Positions 5,072 through 42,239 of a DNA stretch of 64,000 nt are shown here, in pieces; within the stretch, counting starts at the first letter, position 1; every line of letters starts with the position of its first letter. The stretch lies in the NCBI GenBank assembly GCA_013298945.1, contig JAAFJR010000008.1, positions 17,293 to 81,292 of the forward strand. Direction: 5' to 3'. The DNA comes from Polaromonas sp. (GTDB lineage: Bacteria; Pseudomonadota; Gammaproteobacteria; Burkholderiales; Burkholderiaceae_C). Both the position numbers and the translations under genes were made by a program. The notes below the pieces were generated by a model. It had not been told where the DNA came from, did no database searches, and saw nothing but the letters and a program-made list of their open reading frames with translations.

Positions 5072-6115
5072 ATGCATTTAACAAAAATCTTACTGGTCGA
5101 TGATCAACCTATCAGTCTGCTTTATTTAAAACAAACACTAAGTCGATTATCTGACACCTATATAACTACATGTAGTGATGCAATAAAGGCTTTAGACCTT
5201 TGCAAACATGAACCATGGGATCTGATCGTTGCTGATTATCAAATGCCTGGAATGAATGGCCTAGAGTTCATACGACAATTTAGGCAACTGAACGAGGGCG
5301 AAGATACGCCCATTTTGATGGTAACGGCCTCCACCGATCCTAGTGTTAAGTATCAATTGCTTGACCTAGGCGTTGTCGATTTCTTGCAAAAACCAGTGGA
5401 TATTTCAGAATTAACTGCACGATCAAGAAATCTAATCTCTCTTCGTAAAGCCAGACTTATATTAAAAAACCATAACCAAGAACTTAAAAAAGGTGTGCAA
5501 GAAATGACCGTCGTACTCGCAGAGCGAGAACGAGAAAGTTTGTTGGTTTTGGCTCGTGCGGCTGAATCCCGTGATCCTCAAACGGGTTCTCATCTGACAC
5601 GCATGGCTTCATACTCAAAAATAATTGCTTTGGAACTTGGTCTTTCTGAAGATGAAGCCGAAGAAATATACTTGGCTGCGCCTATGCACGATGTAGGAAA
5701 GATAGGCATCCCGGATCGAATCTTGCTCAAGGAGGGAAAGTTAACACCAGAAGAGTGGCTTGAAATGAAACGCCACACTAAATACGGTCATGATATTTTG
5801 GGGAATTCATTAACACCCATCTTGCAGTTAGGTGGAGTGATTGCTTTAAATCATCATGAAGCTTGGGACGGGAGTGGTTATCCAGATGGAAAAAAAGGCG
5901 AGGAAATTCCATTGTGTGCAAGAATAGTTGCAGTAGCTGATGTATTTGATGCACTGACGTCAGTGCGACCTTATAAAAAAGCTTGGTCTCTAGAAGAAGC
6001 TTTGGATGAATTAAACAAATTATCAGATGTCCGACTTGACGCTAATTGTGTCAAAGCATTTATGAAGTCCATCGATTCCGTTAAAGAAATAATGCAAATT
6101 CATGCTGACGTATAA
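5072..6115 (+). CDS. response regulator with HD-GYP c-di-GMP phosphodiesterase domain (RpfG-type)
   Basis: REC domain (LLVDDQP...VADYQMPGMNG...LQKP) followed by HD (MHDVGKIGIPD) and HHEAWDGSGYP motifs. Confidence 0.85.
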   Translation: MHLTKILLVDDQPISLLYLKQTLSRLSDTYITTCSDAIKALDLCKHEPWDLIVADYQMPGMNGLEFIRQFRQLNEGEDTPILMVTASTDPSVKYQLLDLGVVDFLQKPVDISELTARSRNLISLRKARLILKNHNQELKKGVQEMTVVLAERERESLLVLARAAESRDPQTGSHLTRMASYSKIIALELGLSEDEAEEIYLAAPMHDVGKIGIPDRILLKEGKLTPEEWLEMKRHTKYGHDILGNSLTPILQLGGVIALNHHEAWDGSGYPDGKKGEEIPLCARIVAVADVFDALTSVRPYKKAWSLEEALDELNKLSDVRLDANCVKAFMKSIDSVKEIMQIHADV

Positions 6116-6965
6116 AAATATTCTTGAAAGTCTGGATGTAGGTATTGCGATTCTTCGTGATGGAAAATATCTTTCAAATTTAAACATTGCTTTTAAAGAA
6201 TTTTTATCAATAGAAGAAGATATAGAAGATATAGAGTCACTGCTATCGCGAATTGACTCTGACTCCAACTCTATCGCAAAGTTTAATATTTTTTTGAATT
6301 TTCCTGAGAATTTGCAATCATCTTTTATCTTGAATCTAAATTCAGGCATTGTCCTAGGGTGTAAATTAAAACGATTATTGGCAAATGAGGAAGAGACCAT
6401 CGATCTTCTGACAATTCAAGATTTAACCAGTCAAGAATTACGGATTAGGCAACTCACTATTGAATCGCAACAAGATGAGTTAACTGGTGTAGCGAATCGC
6501 CGAAAATTCGAGTACGAATTTTCAAAATTGTATGAGTTCTTACAGCGAACAAAAATAACTGGTGCTTTGTTGATATTAGATTTGGATAATTTCAAAACTA
6601 TAAACGATCGTTTTGGACATAGTACTGGTGATCGGATTCTTCAACAAGTTTGTTTGGCGCTATCTCCGGTAATAAGAAATTACGAGATGCTTGCTCGCGT
6701 TGGTGGAGATGAGTTTGCAATTTTGGTGTCCCATTCTGGCGAGCAGGCAATTTTACGTTTAACTAAAGAAGTCCCATTGGCATTAAAATCAATCAAAATA
6801 AATGCCAATGATGAAACAAGTACAACTGAAGTTTTGAAAGTATCGATAGGTGCTTGTACATTTCCGTTATCTGATTTATCCTATAAAGAGGTATATGAAA
6901 TAGCAGACAAAAATATGTATGAGTACAAAATGAGAGCAAAAAATCTAAAACAAGAAACTCAATAA
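6102..6965 (+). CDS. GGDEF-domain diguanylate cyclase with an unrecognised N-terminal domain
   Basis: DELTGVANRR...LDLDNFKTINDRFGHSTGD...RVGGDEFAILV. Overlaps the upstream HD-GYP gene by 14 nt. Confidence 0.85.
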   Translation: MLTYKNILESLDVGIAILRDGKYLSNLNIAFKEFLSIEEDIEDIESLLSRIDSDSNSIAKFNIFLNFPENLQSSFILNLNSGIVLGCKLKRLLANEEETIDLLTIQDLTSQELRIRQLTIESQQDELTGVANRRKFEYEFSKLYEFLQRTKITGALLILDLDNFKTINDRFGHSTGDRILQQVCLALSPVIRNYEMLARVGGDEFAILVSHSGEQAILRLTKEVPLALKSIKINANDETSTTEVLKVSIGACTFPLSDLSYKEVYEIADKNMYEYKMRAKNLKQETQ

Positions 6966-32030: not shown

Positions 32031-32072
32031 GAAACTTGAAAACTAACGAGTTGGGAGTGAAATTTTAGGCAT

Positions 32073-32102
32073 AAAAAAAGAGCTTTCCAATCTGAAAAGC
32101 TC
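32073..32102 (-). terminator. rho-independent terminator downstream of the LuxR-type regulator gene
   Basis: The minus strand reads GAGCTTT-tcagattgg-AAAGCTC followed by T7. Confidence 0.6.
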
Positions 32103-32160
32103 ATCCTGCCTAGTTTCGATTTAGCCCTATTTTACGAGGGTCTTGCCTCGAAAACCTAGT

Positions 32161-32973
32161 CTAACTGAGCAAGCCTTGGTTCTTTGCACTGCTAACTGCT
32201 TGAGCACGTGTGTGCACTTGCAATTTTCGGTAAATGTTCTTGATATGCGTGGTCACGGTTTGCGTGCTGATATTGATTCTCATGGCGATAGCACTGCTGG
32301 TGCAACCATCTGCCACCAACTCTAAAATTTCACGTTCTCTGTATGACAAAACACCATTACCAAGCATTGGAATGACTTGGTTGCGCGTGCTTTGGAAGTC
32401 AATGTGCGAGCCGTGGGTTAATTTTTTAACGAGCCGCCGCGCCAGGCTGGGCGATATAAAAGCGCCACCATTGGCAACTTGCAGTACAGCTTGCGCATAG
32501 TTGCCAAACCAAGAGTTTTTGACAATATAGCCATTTGCGCCCAAATCAAAAGCGGTGATCGCCTTTTCTTCATCATCCATCATTGACACTACAAGTGCCT
32601 CAGCAGCGGGTCGGTGCATGCGCATGTATTTCAACAGCTCAAAGCTCATGCCATCGCGCAGGTTCAAGTCTAAAAGCATTACATCGAAAGCATAGTTTGC
32701 TATCAAATTTCTACCTTCACGCATGTTACTTGCTGTCGCCACTAGCGTGGTGCGTGGGTCAGAACCCAACTCTTGACCAACGACTGTGCGCATGTGCGCA
32801 TCCTCTTCAATCAAGATCACGCGCAATGGCTGGTTAGCTTGACCCAACAAAAAGTCGGGCCACAAATTTGCAGGATTCGCAAAATATGCAAATTGACCTT
32901 GCGATGCTAGCTTGGATGCATTCGCTTCGTTTGCAGTATTTGTATTGCTAAATGTGGTTACTTGTTGATTCAT
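32161..32973 (-). CDS. NarL/FixJ-type response regulator (REC + LuxR HTH) with a ~50-aa N-terminal extension, in a CsgD-like position
   Basis: REC landmarks ILIEED, VMLLDLNLRDG and GANGYIVK. C-terminal LSYREREILELVADGCTSSAIAMRINISTQTVTTHIKNIYRKL. Divergent from the repeat-protein operon. Confidence 0.8.
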   Translation of the reverse strand: MNQQVTTFSNTNTANEANASKLASQGQFAYFANPANLWPDFLLGQANQPLRVILIEEDAHMRTVVGQELGSDPRTTLVATASNMREGRNLIANYAFDVMLLDLNLRDGMSFELLKYMRMHRPAAEALVVSMMDDEEKAITAFDLGANGYIVKNSWFGNYAQAVLQVANGGAFISPSLARRLVKKLTHGSHIDFQSTRNQVIPMLGNGVLSYREREILELVADGCTSSAIAMRINISTQTVTTHIKNIYRKLQVHTRAQAVSSAKNQGLLS

Positions 32974-33585
32974 GTCACACCCCTTTGTATACGTATCAAT
33001 TGGTTAACTTTTCACAGTTGACATGTATGAACATTAACCACTCTTGGTGACAAATGCTATGTAAATAATGCCCAAAAATAGAACCTTTTAACTTACAAAA
33101 CTATGCGTTTTAGTTAAAAACGGTACAGTAATATATTGACTAAGCAGTAAAGAGCGCTTTTTCCCAATGAAAACGCGCCAATCGAAGCGCCACCAAAAAA
33201 CACGAACAACTTCAAAAAATACAACTGGAATATCTCACCAAATAGTTAAATGTTTCATAAATTTACAAATGATTCACTACGAAACTACCTTTTTTTTAAG
33301 CTTATACCCAGCTAATACGCAAACTTTTCACAGCAATTCTCATTAAGTGCGTCAAAAAGTACACATATTTTGGGTAATAAAACACGGTATTTTTGGTAGA
33401 CGCAACGCGGTATTGAAACACCCCCCTGCAAAACGGAAACTAGCTCCAGATGAAAACAGAAGCGATGCGACAAATAAATTTTGAAAGCATTGCATCTGAT
33501 TTCATCAAAGCTTCCGAGCACCGTTGAGCCACAAGATGTTCGGGAATTTTTAAATTCATTTAAACGTTTCTTTAGGGGATTTATC

Positions 33586-34071
33586 ATGAAAAAACTTTCC
33601 GTATTAGCCTTGGCATTGTTCGCAGCATCAGCATTTGCAACAAGTGGTGGTGGTAGTGGTGGCGGCAGTGGGGGTCCTTCTGCTTCGACTGATGTTGTCA
33701 TCAGCGGTACATCAACTCAAAGCGCCACTCTCAACAGTGTGAATGTGTCTAACCGCGTTTCAGGCAACGACAACGTTGGTCAGCAAAACTTGGCATCAAA
33801 CGCTGGCGATATCGATATTCGTGGTCGTTCAACTCAAACTGTATCAGCACGTGGCGGCTCTATCACCAACACGGTGACAGGCACTGACAACGTCGCAAGC
33901 CAAAACTTGTCGTCAAACATTGGCCAAGTTTCTATCAGCGGAACGTCCACACAGACAACATCGACAACTTACGCTAACGTGAGCAACAACGTTAGCGGAC
34001 GTGACAACTCTGGCACTCAAAACATTGCATCTAACAACTCTTGCACAACTTGCGTTGGCGGACATCGTTAA
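33586..34071 (+). CDS. secreted repeat protein 1: candidate fibre/amyloid-like major subunit (3 x 39-aa Q/N/S/T repeats, Gly/Ser-rich N-terminus, CxxC tail)
   Basis: AGGGGA Shine-Dalgarno. Signal peptide MKKLSVLALALFAASAFA, then TSGGGSGGGSGGPS. Three 39-aa repeats I[SR]GxSTQ...N.V[ST]GxDN...QN[LI][AS]SNxG. Ends in SCTTCVGGHR. Confidence 0.75.
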   Translation: MKKLSVLALALFAASAFATSGGGSGGGSGGPSASTDVVISGTSTQSATLNSVNVSNRVSGNDNVGQQNLASNAGDIDIRGRSTQTVSARGGSITNTVTGTDNVASQNLSSNIGQVSISGTSTQTTSTTYANVSNNVSGRDNSGTQNIASNNSCTTCVGGHR

Positions 34072-34089
34072 TTTGAGTTATCAGAAAAA

Positions 34090-34140
34090 CTTTCAAGAAC
34101 ATGTTGCGACGTTAGAAATAGCTAGCCATGTTTTTGAAAG
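34090..34140 (+). promoter_or_regulatory. intercistronic hairpin between the two repeat-protein genes
   Basis: ctttcaagaacatg (23 nt loop) catgtttttgaaag. A 14-bp stem with one G-U pair; a T-rich tract lies farther downstream. Confidence 0.4.
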
Positions 34141-34186
34141 TTACTGAAAGTTTGAATCATTCGTTTTTTGTGTTGGGAGAACTGTT

Positions 34187-34657
34187 GTGAAAACTACTTT
34201 GTCGCTTTGTCTGTCATTGGTATTGAGTATGGTTACGTCAAACTCGGGCGCCACAGGTTATGACCCAGTTTTAATTTCTGGCTCTTCCACACAAATTGCC
34301 TCCATCAACAATTCAACTATCAGCAATACCGTATTCGGCAACGACAGTACAGCGCAACAAAACTTAGCCAGTAATGCGGGGGGCGTTGTGATTACTGGAA
34401 ATTCACTCCAAATGGTTGCAGCGTATGGTAGCTTCGCTCGAAACGAGGTTATTGGCAGCGAAAGCATGGCCAGTCAGAATTTTTCATCCAATATGGGTGA
34501 TACACAAATCAGTGGCAGATCGATGCAAATCACATCTATGCAAGGGACTTACGCCTACAACAGTGCACAAGGTCATAGCACCTATGCCATACAAAATGTC
34601 GCATCTAACAATGCTTGTTTTAGTTGCCCATCGGGAAACTGCAACTTTAGACGTTGA
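34187..34657 (+). CDS. secreted repeat protein 2: paralogue of protein 1 (candidate minor/nucleator subunit)
   Basis: GTG start 7 nt after GGGAGA. Signal peptide, then the same 3 x 39-aa repeat register (ISGSSTQ...QNLASNAGGVV / ITGNSLQ...QNFSSNMGDTQ / ISGRSMQ...QNVASNNA). Tail is CFSCPSGNC. Confidence 0.7.
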   Translation: MKTTLSLCLSLVLSMVTSNSGATGYDPVLISGSSTQIASINNSTISNTVFGNDSTAQQNLASNAGGVVITGNSLQMVAAYGSFARNEVIGSESMASQNFSSNMGDTQISGRSMQITSMQGTYAYNSAQGHSTYAIQNVASNNACFSCPSGNCNFRR

Positions 34658-34711
34658 TTGTTTTTGCTTTTTTTACAAACTCTACACATGTGTTTTTTAG
34701 AGGTGAATATC

Positions 34712-35137
34712 ATGAAAAACCATTCCAAAATCTCAGCTCTTTGCATCGCAATTTATTTGATCGCTTCTGCACCAGCTTTAGCGCAATTTGCCCCAGGCGA
34801 AGACCCCATCAATTTGACCAAAGTATCCAAAACTGAGCTGCGTCCTACTGCACCACAGCAAGTTTCTGGAAATCTTGACCCGCTTTTTGGTATGCAGGGT
34901 TGGCTGCGTGCTCGCGTAACTCGCTATGAAGCGCGGGCCTATTCTGACAATACGTCCGACAACCTTTTGACAGATAACGACGCCGTTACCACCGCTAGCG
35001 CCCAAGGCTTAAATAAAGTCTGTGTGCAAGAGGTTGGTAGCTCAACGACAAGCTCCACCGGCTTTGGAAAATACGGTCCAAAAGGCGGTGCACAAATCGT
35101 GGTTTTAAAAGGCGATTTGGTCAACATCTGCAAATAA
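34712..35137 (+). CDS. small secreted protein of unknown function (141 aa, two Cys)
   Basis: Signal peptide MKNHSKISALCIAIYLIASAPALA|Q. Shine-Dalgarno agaggtga. Positioned between the repeat proteins and the CsgG-like gene. Confidence 0.6.
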   Translation: MKNHSKISALCIAIYLIASAPALAQFAPGEDPINLTKVSKTELRPTAPQQVSGNLDPLFGMQGWLRARVTRYEARAYSDNTSDNLLTDNDAVTTASAQGLNKVCVQEVGSSTTSSTGFGKYGPKGGAQIVVLKGDLVNICK

Positions 35138-35176
35138 ATAAATTCTTATTCAAAAGTCAAACAAACAAGGCTAGCC

Positions 35177-36820
35177 ATGAATACCAACATAACAACAAAA
35201 GCACCATCGGCGACTCATGAACGTCTGCATCTACCGGTTCTACTTGCTGTGCTGACATCGTTGGTCATCACAGGCTGCGCAGCTCCCATGGATGCTCGCA
35301 AAGATACCAAGTACCAATCGATGGCCTCAGTTGCAGACAGGCCTACATCGCGTCCAACACGATCGCTCTCTAGCATGTCTGCCTCGCTCATGTGTATGGA
35401 TCATATGTTTAGACAAGCTGATTTGCCTACAACGCTCATCACTTCTAAACAAATCCCTGACGTGACGGGCAAGATTGCTGTAGCGACTAAAGACATGATC
35501 GTTACATCACTCTCGCAAATGTCGCGCTTGTCAAATGCATTTCGATACATTGATTATGAAGTCGATATTTCACGTCAAGATACGGTCCAAAACATGACCG
35601 CTATCATGTTGAACAACAACCAAATGCAGCTACAAAAACCGGCACTGTATGTATCGGGTGCAGTTTCATTTGTGGATCAAAACATCATCAATAACCACTT
35701 TGATGCAGGCACATCTGCAACGCGCTTAGAGACTGGTTATAGCAACAACCGCAACGCCACGCTGATTGGGCTTGATCTACATATGGGCGATTTCAAGACG
35801 CGCACCATTATTCCTGGCCTAGATTCAGCTAACGAAGTTGTGATTGGCAATGCCAGCCAAGGCTTAGATTTGGCAGGAAAAATTGGCAGTTATGGCGTTC
35901 AATTCAATGTGGGGCGCGATTACACACAAGGTCCTGGCGCGGCGATTCGTACCTTGGTTGACTTAGCGATGATTGAGCTGATTGGAAAATGGTCACGCCT
36001 ACCCTATTGGCGTTGTTTGACTCTGGACCAAGCGCATCCTGAGCTGCAACGTCAGCTGCGTGACTGGTATGACGCTGGTAGCCCTGCCGCACACTCAAAA
36101 CTGGTGAAAACAGCACTTTCAGGCTTAGGCTATATGAAGATGTCGCAAATTTCTGAACCAGACAACACAGCAGCTTTCAAAACCATTTTGGGCAAATACC
36201 AAGCTGATTCGGGCATGGTGGTTACAGGTGTCATAGATTTTCCGACTTATGAGCGTGTGATGCGTAATTACTCAAAGCTTGATACAGACGGCAAGCTGGT
36301 ACCCGTGGATTGGACACCAAGTGGCGAATTGAAACTTGCTGACGTGCCACGCAGCATGGATTTGCAAATCAAAAACGTCCAACTTGACAAGACTACTTTT
36401 GAAGTAGGCGACCAAATCTTCTTATCGACCAGCGTATCGCGCGCTTCTCATGTGTATTGTTATTTGCAAGAAGCTACAGGCAATATGCTGCGTTTACTGC
36501 CGAATGCAACTAACACAGAGTCCTTGATGACGGCTGATGTATCGGTGCGGATTCCTGATTGGATCAACCCAAAACCAGGCTTCATTTTGGATGCTGCTGC
36601 GCCAGGCAACGAATATGTATTCTGTATTGCTACTGACGATGATGTTCTGCCAAAGTTGCCAGAAGCGATGCAGATAGCAGCATTCAAACCGATAGCAGGT
36701 ATGTCAAACAAAGCAGATGTGGTGAATGCGTTTACACAAGTAGCGGGCGAAGGTGGCTTGAGCCAAGCGACTGTGACTTGGAAAGTCACGCCCAAGACTG
36801 TCAAGCCAGCACAAAAATAA
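35177..36820 (+). CDS. lipoprotein with CsgG-like N-terminal domain + peptidoglycan-binding-like module + DUF4384-like C-terminal domain
   Basis: Lipobox LVITGC. Segments align by eye to E. coli CsgG as I recall it (QIPDVTGKIAVATKDMIVTSLSQ...; LYVSGAVSFVDQN...LIGLDLHM...; IRTLVDLAMIELIGKW). LSGLGYM...YQADSGMVVTGVIDFPTYERV resembles PG_binding_1. FEVGDQIFLSTSVSRASHVYCYLQEATGNMLRLLPN resembles DUF4384. Confidence 0.6.
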   Translation: MNTNITTKAPSATHERLHLPVLLAVLTSLVITGCAAPMDARKDTKYQSMASVADRPTSRPTRSLSSMSASLMCMDHMFRQADLPTTLITSKQIPDVTGKIAVATKDMIVTSLSQMSRLSNAFRYIDYEVDISRQDTVQNMTAIMLNNNQMQLQKPALYVSGAVSFVDQNIINNHFDAGTSATRLETGYSNNRNATLIGLDLHMGDFKTRTIIPGLDSANEVVIGNASQGLDLAGKIGSYGVQFNVGRDYTQGPGAAIRTLVDLAMIELIGKWSRLPYWRCLTLDQAHPELQRQLRDWYDAGSPAAHSKLVKTALSGLGYMKMSQISEPDNTAAFKTILGKYQADSGMVVTGVIDFPTYERVMRNYSKLDTDGKLVPVDWTPSGELKLADVPRSMDLQIKNVQLDKTTFEVGDQIFLSTSVSRASHVYCYLQEATGNMLRLLPNATNTESLMTADVSVRIPDWINPKPGFILDAAAPGNEYVFCIATDDDVLPKLPEAMQIAAFKPIAGMSNKADVVNAFTQVAGEGGLSQATVTWKVTPKTVKPAQK

Positions 36821-36842
36821 CGACATCAGTCAATGTGCCAGT

Positions 36843-38027
36843 ATGAAACGCGATCTCTTGATTTTCGTTACAAATACGGTGTTAGCTTGTGCTGCGGCCA
36901 TGGCTTTGCTAACACCCAAATTTGCCTACAGCGTTCAAATTGACCCTTCGCCGAACGCTGTTAACGGTAATTTGAATGACAACCCGATTGAAGATCGCAT
37001 CACCCTTCCCCAAGTACCACAACAAAAACGAAGTTCTGTTCAACCTATCAAAAATCAAACGGCGCTGCAATCCGATATTGAAAATCTGAAAGCAACAGTA
37101 AATAAAGTCAACGGCGCTACATCTGCACGCCCCAATTCAGCCGCGCAGCTGCAACGACGACAAGCAGCTAATGCCGCTTGGGTTTTGGGTTTGCTATATG
37201 CAAATGGTGTTGGGGTTGATGTTGATTACAGCGAAGCACATTTACGATTTAAACAAGCACATCAACTTGGCGAACCCTTATCGACTGCTGGCTTAGCTTG
37301 GTGTGAGATTCAGGGTTGTGAGACTTGGCCATCTGCACATGCAGCCAGAATTTGGATTGCGCAACTTCGGTCCCCCAAACCTGCGCGAGCCATGTATTTG
37401 GATTGGTTGGTAGAGCAAACGTTTTCGCCACTGCAAGCAAACTCTGAAAAAAGTGCTGCGATTAACGACAAGCTAGCGCAGCAACGTCGACAACTTTTGT
37501 TAAATGCAGCCAAAATGCAGGATGTTCAAGCGTTGATAGAGCTTGGTTTTGATGCCGTAGCCAATGAGCGCTTGAAAGAGGCCTATAACTATTTTGCAAA
37601 TGCAGCACCCAATTCTGCTGTAGCAGCTCAAAACGCCAGTTTGATACAAACACGCCAAAACGAGCAACCCGTCAAATGCAATATTTCAGGTGGTGCCGAT
37701 TTGCAAGATACCGTGCTGCTGAGTTCTGCCCAAGCGTTGCACAGAGGCATCGGTTGCCCTGTGAACTATGCCGAAGCGATTCGACTGTATAACTTAGCTG
37801 CTAACAAAGGCAATATGTCTGCCAAGCGGATGTTGTCACTTATTTATTCAAAGCCAGATGCGAGCGGCAACCTCAACATTGCGTGGATGCAACAATTGGC
37901 AAATTTGAATACGGCCAATTTATCGCTCAGTATCGATGGCGCTAGTCTTGCGCCTATGCTGAAGCGAGAACCAACACCCTTGTTTGACCTGATACCGCAG
38001 AATTTGCGCATTTGGCATGGTCGTTAA
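36843..38027 (+). CDS. secreted Sel1/TPR-like repeat protein
   Basis: Signal peptide. Sel1-type units (AAWVLGLLYANGVGVDVDYSEAHLRFKQA; AQALHRGIGCPVNYAEAIRLYNLAANKGNMSAKRML). Confidence 0.7.
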   Translation: MKRDLLIFVTNTVLACAAAMALLTPKFAYSVQIDPSPNAVNGNLNDNPIEDRITLPQVPQQKRSSVQPIKNQTALQSDIENLKATVNKVNGATSARPNSAAQLQRRQAANAAWVLGLLYANGVGVDVDYSEAHLRFKQAHQLGEPLSTAGLAWCEIQGCETWPSAHAARIWIAQLRSPKPARAMYLDWLVEQTFSPLQANSEKSAAINDKLAQQRRQLLLNAAKMQDVQALIELGFDAVANERLKEAYNYFANAAPNSAVAAQNASLIQTRQNEQPVKCNISGGADLQDTVLLSSAQALHRGIGCPVNYAEAIRLYNLAANKGNMSAKRMLSLIYSKPDASGNLNIAWMQQLANLNTANLSLSIDGASLAPMLKREPTPLFDLIPQNLRIWHGR

Positions 38028-38039
38028 TGAAGGAAACGT

Positions 38040-38120
38040 GGGTGCAAGTTCGGGCCTCAAAATCTTGAAAGTAGCGCTGTACCCCTTGCCTGGGTAAATA
38101 GGCAGATCCACGCCGTAACT
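38040..38120 (-). pseudogene. internal fragment of a second, diverged D-amino-acid dehydrogenase gene
   Basis: Encodes GVDLPIYPGKGYSATFKILRPELAP, compared with GVDVPIYPGKGYSATFKILKPELAP in dadA (41132..41209). Hand alignment gives about 59/75 nt identical, with 14 of 16 mismatches in one codon phase. Confidence 0.75.
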
Positions 38121-38209: not shown

Positions 38210-39598
38210 TCAACATTCAACGATATTGACAGCCAAACCACCGCGTGAAGTTTCTTTGTATTTGACTTTCATGTCAGCACCTGTTTCTCGCATGGTTTTG
38301 ATGACTTTGTCTAAACTCACATAATGAGAGCCGTCTCCATGCAAGGCTATTCGCGCAGCATTTATCGCTTTGACAGATGCAACAGCGTTACGTTCAATAC
38401 ACGGAATTTGTACCAAACCACCCACGGGGTCGCAGGTCAGACCTAGGTGATGCTCCATGCCAATCTCTGCCGCATTTTCTACTTGCTCGTGTGTGCCACC
38501 CATGACAGCACAGAGTGCGGCAGCCGCCATCGAGCAAGCCACGCCCACCTCCCCCTGACACCCAACCTCAGCGCCCGATATGGAAGCATTTTCTTTGTAC
38601 AAGATGCCGATAGCGGCGGCTGTGAGTAAAAAGTCCACCACCCCTTCGTCCGTTGCACCCGAAACAAAACGCTTGTAGTAATGTAGTACAGCAGGAATAA
38701 TGCCAGCAGCACCATTAGTGGGGGCAGTGACGACTCGACCTCCCGCAGCATTTTCTTCGTTCACAGCTAAAGCGTAAAGATTTACCCAGTCGAGCACTTG
38801 TAGTGGATCTGTTAGCAAAGCATCATTATTTTGGCTCAAAGCTTGAAACAGCGGTGCAGCTCGGCGCTTTACTCTGAAACCACCAGGCAGTACCCCTTCC
38901 GCCGTGCAACCTCTTAATACGCATTCTTGCATGACTTGCCAGATACGCAGAAGCCCAGCATCAATCTCAGAATCAGTACGCCAGAGCCGCTCATTACACC
39001 GCATGACCTGCGCAATGCTCATTCCTTCGCGTCGGCATACTTGCATGAGCTCATCAGCGCTGGCAAAGCGGTGCGGCAGCACGGTAGCATCGGGAGCAAT
39101 GGTTTTGTGTCGACTGCCGTTGGCGGTCAGTTCGTCAGAGACAACGAAACCGCCACCTACCGAATAAAACACCCTGTTAGATAACTCACGGCCTGCCGCG
39201 TCCATTGCTAAAAAGCGCATGCCGTTGGCATGAAACGGCAACGACGCGCGCATGAATAGCAGGTCTTCCTTTTCATTGAACGCCACGGTGTGCTTTCCCA
39301 TAAGCGTTATGCAGCAATGGCTGCGAATATCTGCCAATTGGCTTGCAATAGCATCTACCTCCACCTTGTCTGGCTCGTGGCCGCACCACCCTAACATCAC
39401 AGCCATATCACTGGCGTGACCCTTGCCAGTTGCACCTAAAGAACCATGCAGCCAGCAACGAACAGTAGCGGTGTTTTGTAATTGCCCGACTTGCTGCAAA
39501 TCCGACACGAACTGGCGGGCGGCTAGCATGGGCCCCACGGTATGGGAACTGCTAGGTCCGATGCCGATTTTGAACAGATCAAAAACTGAAATAGCCAT
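38210..39598 (-). CDS. sdaA: L-serine ammonia-lyase (Fe-S type)
   Basis: [25 protein letters not shown]-terminus and the C-terminal alpha-domain. Confidence 0.9.
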
Positions 39599-39601
39599 AG
39601 T

Positions 39602-40663
39602 TCAACGCGCCAGTTCGGTGTGCATATCAGCGAGAAAAGCATCGACAGAGGCTTCAGTTGTATCCCAGGCGCACATAAAACGACAACCACCGCCGGCAAT
39701 GAACTGGTAAAACTTCCAGCCACGCGCTTGCATGGCATCAACTGTTTTTGCAGGTAGTTGCGCAAAAACACCGTTGGCTTCGGGCGTATGGATACACATC
39801 ACACCAGGCAGCTGACACAAGCCTTGGTGAAGACGCTGTGCCATCGCATTGGCGTGGCGAGCATTGTGCAGCCACACATCGTTTTCCAGCAACCCAACCC
39901 AAGGTGCAGAAATAAAACGCATCTTGGATGCCAGCTGGCCAGCTTGCTTCACGCGCCACGCAAAGTCTTCTGAAAGTTGACGGTCAAAAAACACAACAGC
40001 TTCGCCAATGGGGAGACCATTCTTTGTGCCACCAAAACACAAGACATCTACGCCTGCACGCCAAGTGACATCAGCCGGACTGCAACCCAAGTGTGCAACT
40101 GCGTTGGCAAAACGAGCACCATCCATATGTACTTTAAGTTGGTGTTTTCTAGCCATCTGAGAAATGGCACTGACCTCATCTACACTGTAGACAGTCCCCA
40201 TTTCAGTGGCCTGTGTGATTGAAACCACCTTGGGGCGTGGATAGTGGATATCCGTACGCTTGGTAACCAGGGTGTGCACCGCATCTGGCGTGAGCTTGCC
40301 CAAGCGTGCGGCATCAGATGTGTTTTCAGCAACCAGCAGTTTTGAGCCATTCGAGAAAAATTCCGGTCCACCGCATTCGTCCGTTTCGATATGTGCCACC
40401 GGTGTGCAGATCACCGAGTGATAACTTTGGCACAATGAAGCGAGTGCAAGTGAATTAGCAGCTGTTCCGTTGAACACAAAATAGACATCGCACTCGATAT
40501 CGAACAGCTTACGCAACATGTCTGTGGAGCGCTGCGTCCAGCGATCATCACCGTAAGCGGGTTCATGGCCGCTGGCATTGGCTTCCAAAAACCAGTGCAA
40601 AGCCTCGGGGCAAGTGCCAGCATAGTTGTCGCTGGCGAATTCTTGGCGGTTAAATGTGTTCAT
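39602..40663 (-). CDS. ltaE: low-specificity threonine aldolase / beta-eliminating lyase family (PLP-dependent)
   Basis: FASDNYAG...GDD...FNGTAANSLAL...GGTKNG pattern. Confidence 0.75.
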   Translation of the reverse strand: MNTFNRQEFASDNYAGTCPEALHWFLEANASGHEPAYGDDRWTQRSTDMLRKLFDIECDVYFVFNGTAANSLALASLCQSYHSVICTPVAHIETDECGGPEFFSNGSKLLVAENTSDAARLGKLTPDAVHTLVTKRTDIHYPRPKVVSITQATEMGTVYSVDEVSAISQMARKHQLKVHMDGARFANAVAHLGCSPADVTWRAGVDVLCFGGTKNGLPIGEAVVFFDRQLSEDFAWRVKQAGQLASKMRFISAPWVGLLENDVWLHNARHANAMAQRLHQGLCQLPGVMCIHTPEANGVFAQLPAKTVDAMQARGWKFYQFIAGGGCRFMCAWDTTEASVDAFLADMHTELAR

Positions 40664-40696: not shown

Positions 40697-42097
40697 TTAA
40701 AAACCATAAAATTTAAATTCTGTGCCTGAATTCATGGCTTTGCCCTGCGCAATCTCGGGTACTTTGCCATCTATCAGCTCCGCTAGCGCCTTGCCCGACC
40801 CTGCACCGTGTGTCCAGCCTAGCGTGCCGTGGCCTGCGTTGACCCACAGCTTCCCAACTTTGGTCTTACCGATGACGGGAATGTTGGTCGGCGTGGCTGG
40901 GCGCAGGCCTGCCCAGTAGTTAGGCGATCCGCCCTCTTCTAAGCTACGTGTATCGCACACGCCAGGCAGCACGGTTTCTACCCGTTTGGCCAGCATGCGG
41001 CAGCGTATTTGCGACAATTCAGAATCAATCGAGTTGTCATAAGCGCTAATTTCAATGGTTCCTGCCACGCGCAGCTGGTCGCCCAAACGCGTCATCGCAC
41101 ACTTGGCTTGGTCGTCAATGACTGAGACGTTGGGCGCTAGCTCAGGTTTCAAGATTTTGAAGGTGGCGCTATAGCCTTTGCCTGGGTAAATCGGCACATC
41201 GACGCCAACGGTGCGTAAAAGTGGTGCGGTGTAAGAGCCGCAAGCGACGACAAAAGCGTCTGCTATCAGGGTTTTTACCTCAAATTCGTCATTTTTATGT
41301 CCATTTATATCCTTATTTTTACCTCTAGCCAGCGTATTCACTGCCTGAATAGCTATAGATTTAATAGTATTTTTTGACATATTCAATGCCAATACATCAT
41401 GCCCGTACAGAATCTCAGCACCTCTAGCTGCACAAACTTGCGCTAGTTTTTGCGTGAATACGCGGGCGTCGCCGCTCTCGTCGCTATCCGTATAAGTGCC
41501 ACCTACGATGTGGGAAGCAAAGGATTTCAATGCGGGCTCGATTTTTAAAATAGCATCCCGCCCAAGCACTTGCCGATTCACGCCATATTTTTGCATCAAC
41601 AAAGCAGCTTCACCAGCTGCATCGAATGCGTGTTGGTCTGTGAAATAGTGAGCGATGCCGCGTTCAAGGCGGTTGTAATCAATACCAGTCGCATCGACAA
41701 TGTCTTTCAAAGCCAGATGGCTGTATGCGCCAAGCGCGACGATTTGCTGCACATTGCACTCAAACGCGGCGTCGTTACACTGCCCCAAAAACTGCATGCC
41801 CCAACGCCATTGCTGCCAACCACCACCGAATTTGGCAGTGGGGCCAAATGTGGGCCATTGTGGGCGAAACAGCAAAGGTGCTTCTTTGCTGAACATCCAT
41901 TTCAGGGCTTTAAGCGGCGCGTCTTTGTTGGCCCATGGCTCGCAGTAGCTCACCGATATTTGCCCTGCATTGGCAAAGCTGGTTTCCAGCGCAGCGTTTG
42001 GCTGGCGGTCAATCACAATCACTTCATGACCCAATTCCAACAAATGCCACGCAGTGCTGATGCCTATGATACCTGCGCCTAAAACAATGATTTTCAT
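40697..42097 (-). CDS. dadA: D-amino-acid dehydrogenase small subunit
   Basis: MKIIVLGAGIIGISTAWHLLELGHEVIVIDR FAD fold and a DadA-like C-terminus. Start chosen at MKII rather than the 22-codon-longer ORF. Confidence 0.85.
   Translation of the reverse strand: MKIIVLGAGIIGISTAWHLLELGHEVIVIDRQPNAALETSFANAGQISVSYCEPWANKDAPLKALKWMFSKEAPLLFRPQWPTFGPTAKFGGGWQQWRWGMQFLGQCNDAAFECNVQQIVALGAYSHLALKDIVDATGIDYNRLERGIAHYFTDQHAFDAAGEAALLMQKYGVNRQVLGRDAILKIEPALKSFASHIVGGTYTDSDESGDARVFTQKLAQVCAARGAEILYGHDVLALNMSKNTIKSIAIQAVNTLARGKNKDINGHKNDEFEVKTLIADAFVVACGSYTAPLLRTVGVDVPIYPGKGYSATFKILKPELAPNVSVIDDQAKCAMTRLGDQLRVAGTIEISAYDNSIDSELSQIRCRMLAKRVETVLPGVCDTRSLEEGGSPNYWAGLRPATPTNIPVIGKTKVGKLWVNAGHGTLGWTHGAGSGKALAELIDGKVPEIAQGKAMNSGTEFKFYGF
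41321..41368 (-). repeat. 48-bp dispersed repeat, copy F (in frame in dadA)
   Basis: acctctagccagcgtattcactgcctgaatagctatagatttaatagt. Encodes TIKSIAIQAVNTLARG. CAG variant. Confidence 0.9.
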
Positions 42098-42239
42098 GCT
42101 ACAACTTTCATACTTACTTATGCCTTGCCATTTCAACTGATACAAGTGTCTGCGAAGTTGCAAAGAAATAAAAGCGACATTAAACTAACAGCAAAAATAT
42201 CAAGAACGCTAATACAAGCACTAAAAAAACAGACCCAAG

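Follow-up and report, generated by a model that had tools for sequence, protein, structure and literature searches.

A conserved Comamonadaceae operon pairing a CsgG-related lipoprotein with Fap-like repeat proteins: a candidate type VIII-like export locus

Background

To our knowledge, only two dedicated amyloid export systems of Gram-negative bacteria, curli and Fap, are understood in detail, and these two underlie most thinking on how aggregation-prone subunits are handled safely. Here, a locus from Polaromonas sp. (GenBank assembly GCA_013298945.1, contig JAAFJR010000008.1, positions 17,293 to 81,292) is described in which a divergently encoded regulator stands opposite genes for two small repeat proteins, a lipoprotein and two further exported proteins. 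The whole stretch of 64,000 nucleotides that was analyzed is referred to as the window, and all coordinates are window positions unless a related locus is named. From the sequence alone, an original prediction had described this locus as a curli-like secretion system with a non-curlin repeat cargo.

Besides curli, two described systems are close enough to be compared. The subunits FapB and FapC of the Pseudomonas functional amyloid Fap (fapABCDEF) each contain three imperfect repeats of 38-39 residues with conserved Asn/Gln and a CxxC motif close to the C-terminus, and the FapC structure determined by cryo-electron microscopy has one cross-beta layer per repeat (10.1101/2020.03.09.983882; PMC12392863). 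In Caulobacter, HfaB is a CsgG-like lipoprotein of the holdfast anchor that is required for the surface display of small amyloid-like proteins resistant to sodium dodecyl sulfate (SDS), among them HfaA, a small curlin-like protein whose display is HfaB-dependent (PMC6707917).

Organization of the locus and comparison with known systems

The locus consists of the following features (aa, amino acids; E, expect value; GC, guanine-cytosine content):

32161..32973, minus strand: response regulator of the NarL/LuxR type, 270 aa (Pfam GerE E 2.7e-19, Response_reg E 1.1e-14)
32974..33585: divergent AT-rich regulatory spacer, 612 bp, GC 0.35-0.40
33586..34071, plus strand: repeat protein 1, 161 aa, presumed major exported subunit
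34073..34155: intergenic hairpin after repeat gene 1 (RNA fold)
34187..34657, plus strand: repeat protein 2, 156 aa, diverged paralog of repeat protein 1
34712..35137, plus strand: exported accessory protein, 141 aa, two invariant Cys
35177..36820, plus strand: predicted outer-membrane lipoprotein, 547 aa, lipobox LVITG-C34
36843..38027, plus strand: Sel1/TPR-like exported repeat protein, 394 aa (Pfam Sel1 E 3.5e-6)
38006..38114: dadA remnant at the right border, 110 bp, overlapping the last codons of the Sel1 gene

Gene calls and sequence comparison placed all six genes, the 612-bp spacer and the dadA fragment where the original prediction had put them. For repeat gene 1, the true ATG at 33586 lies inside the open reading frame 33481..34071 and has AGGGGA ahead of it. 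The Pfam matches of the five plus-strand products were confined to DUF4384 and Sel1.

With moderate confidence, the operon, which is conserved in the Comamonadaceae, is interpreted as serving a type VIII-like (CsgG-type) pathway of export and surface assembly. When one genome per species was scanned, 187 genomes encoded a relative of the lipoprotein, and the loci of the best 80 of these 187 were studied. In local hidden Markov model (HMM) searches, the order of a minus-strand regulator followed by plus-strand repeat, accessory, lipoprotein and Sel1 genes was found in 75 of the 80 loci. The remaining five are truncated by contig ends, and no locus with adequate flank deviates. The genes thus co-occur, as expected from the original prediction, in every species genome with enough flanking sequence.

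Several features of the locus resemble curli, the type VIII secretion system of Enterobacteria (csgDEFG/csgBAC). The lipoprotein appears to be an outer-membrane member of the CsgG superfamily, the cargo consists of small Sec-exported proteins with imperfect Gln/Asn-rich repeats and a predicted beta-solenoid fold, a second paralogous cargo gene is present in the window lineage, and a regulator with a LuxR-type helix-turn-helix (HTH) is encoded divergently across a long AT-rich spacer. In contrast to curli, the cargo has no curlin repeat, its repeats measure 39 aa compared to about 20 aa, and it carries a C-terminal CxxC motif. No CsgE or CsgF homolog is present, and the place of these accessories is taken by the Sel1 protein and the 141-aa protein with its two cysteines. 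Unlike CsgG, the lipoprotein is twice as long, carries domains resembling peptidoglycan (PG)-binding domains and DUF4384, and is without the constriction loop. The regulator also differs, being a canonical response regulator of the NarL type whose partner kinase is present in most genomes.

The likeness to Fap concerns the cargo. A signal peptide, three Asn/Gln-rich repeats of 39 aa and a C-terminal CxxC form a nearly identical plan, and the two subunit paralogs lie in tandem in the window lineage. However, the cargo has no detectable sequence similarity to FapC and no long linkers between its repeats, and the export component is CsgG-like. No fap-like genes surfaced in the Pfam scan of the five plus-strand products, in which no dedicated models of FapA, FapE, the C39 peptidase FapD or the trimeric barrel FapF were run. 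The original prediction had set the cargo apart from both the csg and Fap systems, which holds for the sequence but not for the architecture, as this is the FapB/FapC plan of three 39-aa repeats and a CxxC. Because sequence similarity is not detectable, this likeness would reflect convergence or very remote kinship and not membership in Fap. The link to Hfa is HfaB, which matches the N-terminal domain of the lipoprotein better than any other curated family; the locus differs from Hfa of Caulobacter (HfaA/HfaB/HfaD, with or without HfaE) in its taxon, the Betaproteobacteria, in its domain fusions and in a conserved neighborhood that contains no holdfast polysaccharide genes.

The lipoprotein family

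In the lipoprotein, a CsgG-like domain (about residues 21-303, nt 35237-36085) is followed by a helical PG_binding_1-like region (about residues 300-365) and a DUF4384 beta-sandwich (residues 407-487, nt 36395-36637; Pfam E 2.4e-13). In NCBIfam, HfaB was its sole match (E 1.2e-6, 27.9 bits, residues 29-270, model positions 3-258 of 264), and HfaB was likewise the only family matched in 16 of 26 close homologs. As the 27.9 bits do not reach the cut-off of 300 bits set for this equivalog (NF037935), the match indicates homology and not equivalence.

A profile of the N-terminal domain collected 712 representative clusters at 50% identity. Across 79 diverse relatives of the lipoprotein, Pfam matches were found for PG_binding_1 (59), DUF4384 (51), PG_binding_2 (17) and CsgG (11), the best CsgG match having an E of 4.3e-6. 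When the profile of these 79 members was aligned to residues 3-273 of E. coli CsgG with hhalign, a probability of 92.5% and an E of 4.9e-7 were obtained over 241 columns. The alignment is collinear, with superposed lipoboxes and both transmembrane-hairpin segments covered. Without the signal peptide and lipobox, the alignment still scored 36.0 (E 8e-5, 178 columns), compared to 18.0 for the best of 60 shuffled CsgG sequences and 17.4 for the reversed sequence. The segment equivalent to transmembrane segment 2 (TM2) shows alternating hydrophobic residues in the family, for example Y-G-V-Q-F-N-V. A profile restricted to close homologs, which is too shallow with an effective number of sequences (Neff) of 1.4, gave only a 21-residue match to CsgG. 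Judged from these alignments, the N-terminal domain is best regarded as a remote member of the CsgG superfamily and not as a CsgG ortholog.

Relatives of the lipoprotein in databases are annotated only as 'DUF4384 domain-containing protein'. The literature on DUF4384 mostly concerns caspase homologs and bacterial kinases, and for this reason the domain may be a shared periplasmic module.

The repeat protein family

Repeat protein 1 consists of a signal peptide, a Gly/Ser-rich segment, three 39-aa Gln/Asn-ladder repeats and a C-terminal CTTC. Repeat protein 2 has the same three repeats with more aromatic residues, is without the Gly-rich segment and ends in CFSCPSGNC. The three ungapped repeats per paralog were confirmed by alignment and shuffle statistics: repeat pairs within repeat protein 1 are identical at 16-23 of 39 positions, and their summed identity of 56 compares to 12.6 +/- 3.3 in 5000 composition-preserving shuffles, none of which reached 56. 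Since the repeats of the two paralogs match one to one (24, 18 and 16 identities per 39), the whole repeat gene was apparently duplicated. Together with the overall identity of about 44%, this agrees with the earlier description of repeat protein 2 as a diverged paralog. A reading of it as a nucleator, however, is pure analogy and is not supported; most genomes have a single repeat gene. A second paralog is found only in the window, in the nearest Polaromonas relatives (L010-L013) and on contig L009.

The repeat proteins have 107 homologous clusters, none of which is named or has a Pfam domain. No match was obtained for the two proteins in Pfam, NCBIfam or the PDB, including a search of the PDB with the family profile, which also did not reach FapC. 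Curlin_rpt (PF07012) did not match either protein or 40 family members at E <= 1, and no Pfam family recurred meaningfully across these 40 members. By Pfam, by hhalign and across the 40 members, the proteins are therefore unrelated to curlin in sequence, as had been proposed.

Among 120 aligned repeat units, positions Q9, G24 and N36 are invariant and positions N20, Q31, N32 and S35 are conserved at 97-98%. Conservation has a period of two within positions 1-13, 16-24 and 29-38, with variable turns in between. This pattern would fit rungs of three beta-strands each, in which one face is buried and Gln/Asn/Ser ladders are stacked. The AlphaFold2 model of the repeat protein is all-beta, with a predicted local distance difference test (pLDDT) score of about 85 for residues 37-150, and the Foldseek matches to it are exclusively beta-solenoids, with the CsgA fibril first, followed by ice-binding proteins, SufD and FapC. 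A beta-solenoid without membership in a known family had been anticipated in the original prediction, and the model is neither disordered nor matched by such a family. As far as sequence and model can tell, the repeat proteins thus form a new sequence family whose plan is that of a beta-solenoid and resembles Fap.

Variation in this family was counted over 91 members from the related loci. Three repeats are present in 64 of the 91 members and five in 14. A C-terminal CxxC is found in 77, and in the others it is replaced by a C-x(5-9)-C-x(2-3)-C variant. In some members, mainly from Hydrogenophaga, a second CxxC follows straight after the signal peptide, e.g. GGDTCSECPEIVIDG (repeat genes at about 5925-6437 in L016, L017 and L054, at 5752-6393 in L023 and at 4316-4870 in L056). 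A CxxC at both ends would suit a head-to-tail disulfide locking of stacked subunits. Gly/His-rich tails (GHGGGHGEH) end eight of the 91 members and might bind metal.

The accessory and Sel1 proteins

The accessory protein has APGEDP behind its signal peptide, followed by the motifs KxCVQEVGS and QIVVLKGDLVNICK. Throughout the family, which comprises 145 homologous clusters that are all annotated as 'hypothetical', the motifs APGEDP, KxCVQEVGS and VVLxGDLVNxC as well as two Cys residues are invariant. Its gene lies directly upstream of the lipoprotein gene in every related locus. The family profile showed no likeness to E. coli CsgE and CsgF (probability 0.2%), in line with the earlier claim that the accessory proteins differ from those of csg, and no Pfam or NCBIfam match was found. 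General Pfam and NCBIfam scans gave nothing relevant for CsgC, for which no profile comparison was made. One accessory homolog carries a precomputed PF27850 tag.

The Sel1 protein matches Pfam Sel1 in two stretches with 27.8 bits, just under the cut-off of 30.7. An ortholog follows the lipoprotein gene in the related Comamonadaceae loci with downstream flank, and the protein is presumed to be a periplasmic adaptor or chaperone of the system.

Conservation and distribution

Almost all of the 80 genomes are labeled as Comamonadaceae or unclassified Proteobacteria, including Polaromonas, Hydrogenophaga, Acidovorax, Simplicispira, Comamonas, Alicycliphilus, Limnohabitans, Variovorax, Caenimonas and others. 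Three are labeled otherwise (Synechococcus, Bosea and Pantoea). The nearest is a Polaromonas metagenome-assembled genome (MAG), at 94%.

The core of cargo, accessory and lipoprotein genes is kept even where the lipoproteins are only 29-36% identical, and the repeat proteins of the related loci differ in repeat length and number. In Limnobacter alexandrii (L091), the lipoprotein is 36% identical and is preceded by an accessory homolog (E 3.4e-8); the cargo is a two-repeat member of the 39-aa family (E 7.9e-19). This locus encodes an additional secreted protein of 306 aa (5324-6244), whose repeats measure about 33 aa (GSNxQ...VVNxAALAAK...) and bear no relation to the 39-aa family. On a metagenomic contig with a 29% identical lipoprotein, the cargo position is taken by a 236-aa protein (E 1.1e-6) whose repeats measure about 32 aa, and the accessory position by a 101-aa Cys...Cys protein. 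Further members of the lipoprotein family, annotated only as DUF4384 proteins, occur in Buttiauxella, Xanthomonadaceae and Magnetococcales.

Other genes were observed near the distant homologs. Downstream in L091 (10176-15272), genes for a WD40 protein, an extracytoplasmic function (ECF) sigma factor, a caspase-like Peptidase_C14 and an OmpA-domain protein are found. A DUF2807 protein is encoded near another distant lipoprotein homolog (L092, 9708-10931); Pfam describes DUF2807 as a beta-helical domain resembling adhesin heads, and beta-helical cargo of other kinds might therefore exist.

Regulation

The best NCBIfam match of the regulator is NarL (E 2e-31), and CsgD is matched through the HTH only. 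An orthologous regulator is found at the equivalent place in the related loci, and in 61 of them tex and the regulator are separated by the gene for a HisKA_3/HATPase histidine kinase (e.g. L007, 5417-6667). The CsgD-like divergent regulator of the original prediction is correct in its LuxR-type HTH and its orientation, but it is an ordinary NarL-type response regulator. An assignment as CsgD ortholog was rejected based on the NarL-type best matches and the partner kinase. This kinase is absent in the window (32031-32160) and in the nearest relatives L011-L013, and therefore the regulator of this sub-lineage would be an orphan. The sub-lineage without the kinase is also the one that carries the duplicated repeat gene.

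In 52 related loci, the GC content of the divergent spacer is about 15 points lower than that of its flanks. In the window, an inverted repeat at 33449-33506 (arms of 20 nt with 85% complementarity, separated by 18 nt) is located within the presumed 5' leader, some 80-140 bp upstream of the start codon of repeat gene 1, and is a candidate operator or leader structure. A search of the locus against Rfam, aimed at a riboswitch in the long leader, matched no family, the inverted repeat included, and a promoter and terminator scan of the locus gave promoter-like matches no better than chance. The gap of 115 bp after repeat gene 1 contains a hairpin whose stem measures about 16 bp (34088-34103 / 34127-34142), with a T-run downstream; the fold of 34073-34155 has an energy of -35.7 kcal/mol, with a z-score of only -1.9. 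The hairpin is possibly an attenuator or a stabilizer of the mRNA and may set the stoichiometry of subunit to machinery.

Genomic context

The cluster has tex as its neighbor in the window as well as in 25 other loci, and its GC content equals that of the flanks in 52 loci (mean difference -0.004). The operon in the window (33586-38027) has a GC content of 0.46 compared to about 0.52 in the flanks, and a drop of 4-6 points is found in the window and in the Polaromonas loci L011 and L064. Because of the shared tex neighbor and the equal GC content, the cluster is ancestral, and a recent insertion of the block was rejected.

The dadA remnant is 78% identical over 110 bp (E 2e-21) to the interior of the full dadA gene at 40697..42163, which lies 2.6 kb past it. 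In the close Polaromonas relative L011 (8642-11256), an intact dadA gene follows straight after the Sel1 gene. Accordingly, sdaA and the adjacent 353-aa gene (38210..40663) were inserted in the window lineage, and dadA was partly duplicated. The fragment noted in the original prediction is therefore real and the right flank is rearranged, but the block itself was not inserted.

Discussion

The original prediction is partly supported. The four computational tests that could have refuted it were carried out, and none of them did so. It was right in outline but wrong on the N-terminal signal, the CsgD analogy, the insertion and the distance from Fap. A possible mechanism can be outlined for the proposed export and surface-assembly pathway. 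The Sec system would export one or two small repeat proteins, unfolded, into the periplasm, and the CsgG-like N-terminal domain would oligomerize to form an outer-membrane pore, which the fused PG-binding-like and DUF4384 domains may tether or cap from the periplasmic side. The Sel1 protein and the disulfide-bonded 141-aa protein could be periplasmic or surface helpers with the roles that CsgE, CsgF and CsgC have in curli. Outside the cell, each 39-aa repeat would form one three-strand rung of a beta-solenoid with stacked Gln/Asn/Ser ladders, and subunits stacked end to end could build a cross-beta fiber or a cell-anchored layer in which the terminal CxxC motifs may lock adjacent subunits. A putative cross-beta assembly is supported only indirectly, by the all-beta model and the conservation pattern of the Gln/Asn ladder. 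The NarL-type two-component regulator would switch expression via the long AT-rich divergent promoter region.

Alternatively, the operon could encode a holdfast-anchor-like complex comparable to HfaA/HfaB/HfaD, in which the lipoprotein exports the repeat protein to form short, cell-bound, SDS-resistant multimers that anchor another matrix polymer (polysaccharide or DNA) or act as an adhesin, instead of free fibers. HfaB as the single best curated-family match, the display of the small curlin-like HfaA through HfaB (PMC6707917) and the PG-binding fusion, which suggests a fixed envelope-spanning anchor, are in favor of this explanation. It is nevertheless considered unlikely, since the HfaB score is far below the equivalog cut-off, the repeat, accessory and Sel1 proteins had no convincing match in NCBIfam, holdfast or otherwise, and no polysaccharide synthesis genes were present in the gene tables of the related loci examined.

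Several results weigh against a CsgG-type export pathway, for the lipoprotein as well as for its cargo. The window lipoprotein alone had no match to Pfam CsgG (PF03783) at E <= 1 and none among the PDB sequences, also when a profile of its close family was used. The alignment with CsgG that the original prediction had made by eye for the N-terminal half is supported by the family profiles and hhalign, but not by these direct searches. In addition, the constriction loop of CsgG (Y51/N55/F56), which makes up the eyelet of the pore, is missing from the whole family. In both hhalign runs, a 12-residue gap falls exactly at FKPYPASNFSTA, the constriction loop of CsgG, and the loop region measures 27 residues in 69 of the 79 members and 26-30 throughout, compared to 39 in CsgG as counted from the alignment. 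With this loop deleted, the properties of a pore would differ, and a non-channel role is possible. In the AlphaFold2 model of the full lipoprotein, built from 26 homologs, the N-terminal domain has a pLDDT of about 25. For this reason, the CsgG-like fold and oligomer are putative, and Foldseek gave only generic beta-sandwich matches, which are uninformative at this pLDDT.

These results could also be explained if the CsgG-like domain were no secretion channel but a periplasmic scaffold tied to peptidoglycan, with the repeat proteins as a beta-helical layer within the envelope, either periplasmic or associated with the outer membrane. The family-wide absence of the loop, PG_binding_1 or PG_binding_2 in most family members, the missing direct Pfam CsgG match and a model that confirms no barrel are consistent with such a scaffold. 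However, the alignment to CsgG runs over the full length and includes both hairpin segments and the amphipathic TM2 pattern, and the tight, order-conserved linkage to small repeat proteins with signal peptides is what would be expected of a cargo and its channel. A scaffold of this kind is therefore regarded as distinctly improbable.

For the cargo, only the signal peptide was matched when the repeat family was compared to E. coli CsgA with hhalign. The FapB/FapC repeat motif (gasGN-G-N-aaG-gNqQN) was not recovered in the cargo: the family HMM scored -1.3 to 1.8 bits against the three repeats of FapC from UK4, and the 120 repeat units reached a probability of 0.3% against the FapC repeats with hhalign. 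Only two of the five AlphaFold2 models were confident, and no Foldseek match was significant, the CsgA fibril being the top match at E 0.026 and a probability of 0.09. The Gly-rich N-terminal segment, which the original prediction had likened to the targeting segment of CsgA, is not conserved either, as most family members begin with TGPTPAS. The segment therefore cannot be a general targeting signal like CsgA-N22, and a conserved signal of this kind was rejected due to its absence from most of the 91 members.

That the repeat proteins are soluble monomeric beta-solenoids for ice binding in a cold-adapted Polaromonas host, or for metal binding via CxxC or His-rich tails, is highly improbable: many Foldseek neighbors are ice-binding, the protein is Thr/Ser/Asn-rich, Polaromonas MAGs from glaciers and streams are the closest relatives and eight of the 91 members have His-rich tails, but none of the Foldseek matches is significant, the family and operon are also present in Acidovorax, Hydrogenophaga, Comamonas and Alicycliphilus, which are not regarded as cold specialists and on whose account ice binding was rejected, the invariant alternating Gln/Asn reads as a buried ladder and not as a surface TxT array, and a dedicated CsgG-like partner would be left unexplained.

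A CsgG-type pathway that assembles its cargo on the surface is therefore preferred. A broader possibility, which is put forward tentatively, is that the operon represents a third, unrecognized family of bacterial functional amyloids or fibers after Csg and Fap. In such a family, a loop-less lipoprotein of the CsgG superfamily, which is fused to PG-binding and DUF4384 domains and occurs across Proteobacteria, would together with a small Cys-Cys accessory protein export self-stacking beta-solenoid repeat proteins, and the cargo of the Comamonadaceae would have converged on the FapC plan. In the literature on DUF4384 together with CsgG, on CsgG-like lipoproteins and on amyloids of Comamonadaceae, no description of this system was found.

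Conclusion

The finding is more general than the window alone would suggest, since the operon is conserved throughout the Comamonadaceae and its core extends beyond them. If the interpretation is true, the combination of a CsgG-type channel, a Fap-style cargo and different helpers would constitute a natural experiment that would reveal which parts of such systems are essential, namely the constriction loop, the periplasmic cap and the nucleator. CsgG is used as a commercial nanopore, and a natural variant that has no loop and differs in pore geometry could be of practical interest. A role would also be assigned to the large family of 'DUF4384' lipoproteins and to three families of hypothetical proteins. 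Comamonadaceae are abundant in freshwater, glacier-fed streams, activated sludge and plant-associated communities, and the system would likely be a component of their biofilm matrix or of their adhesion.

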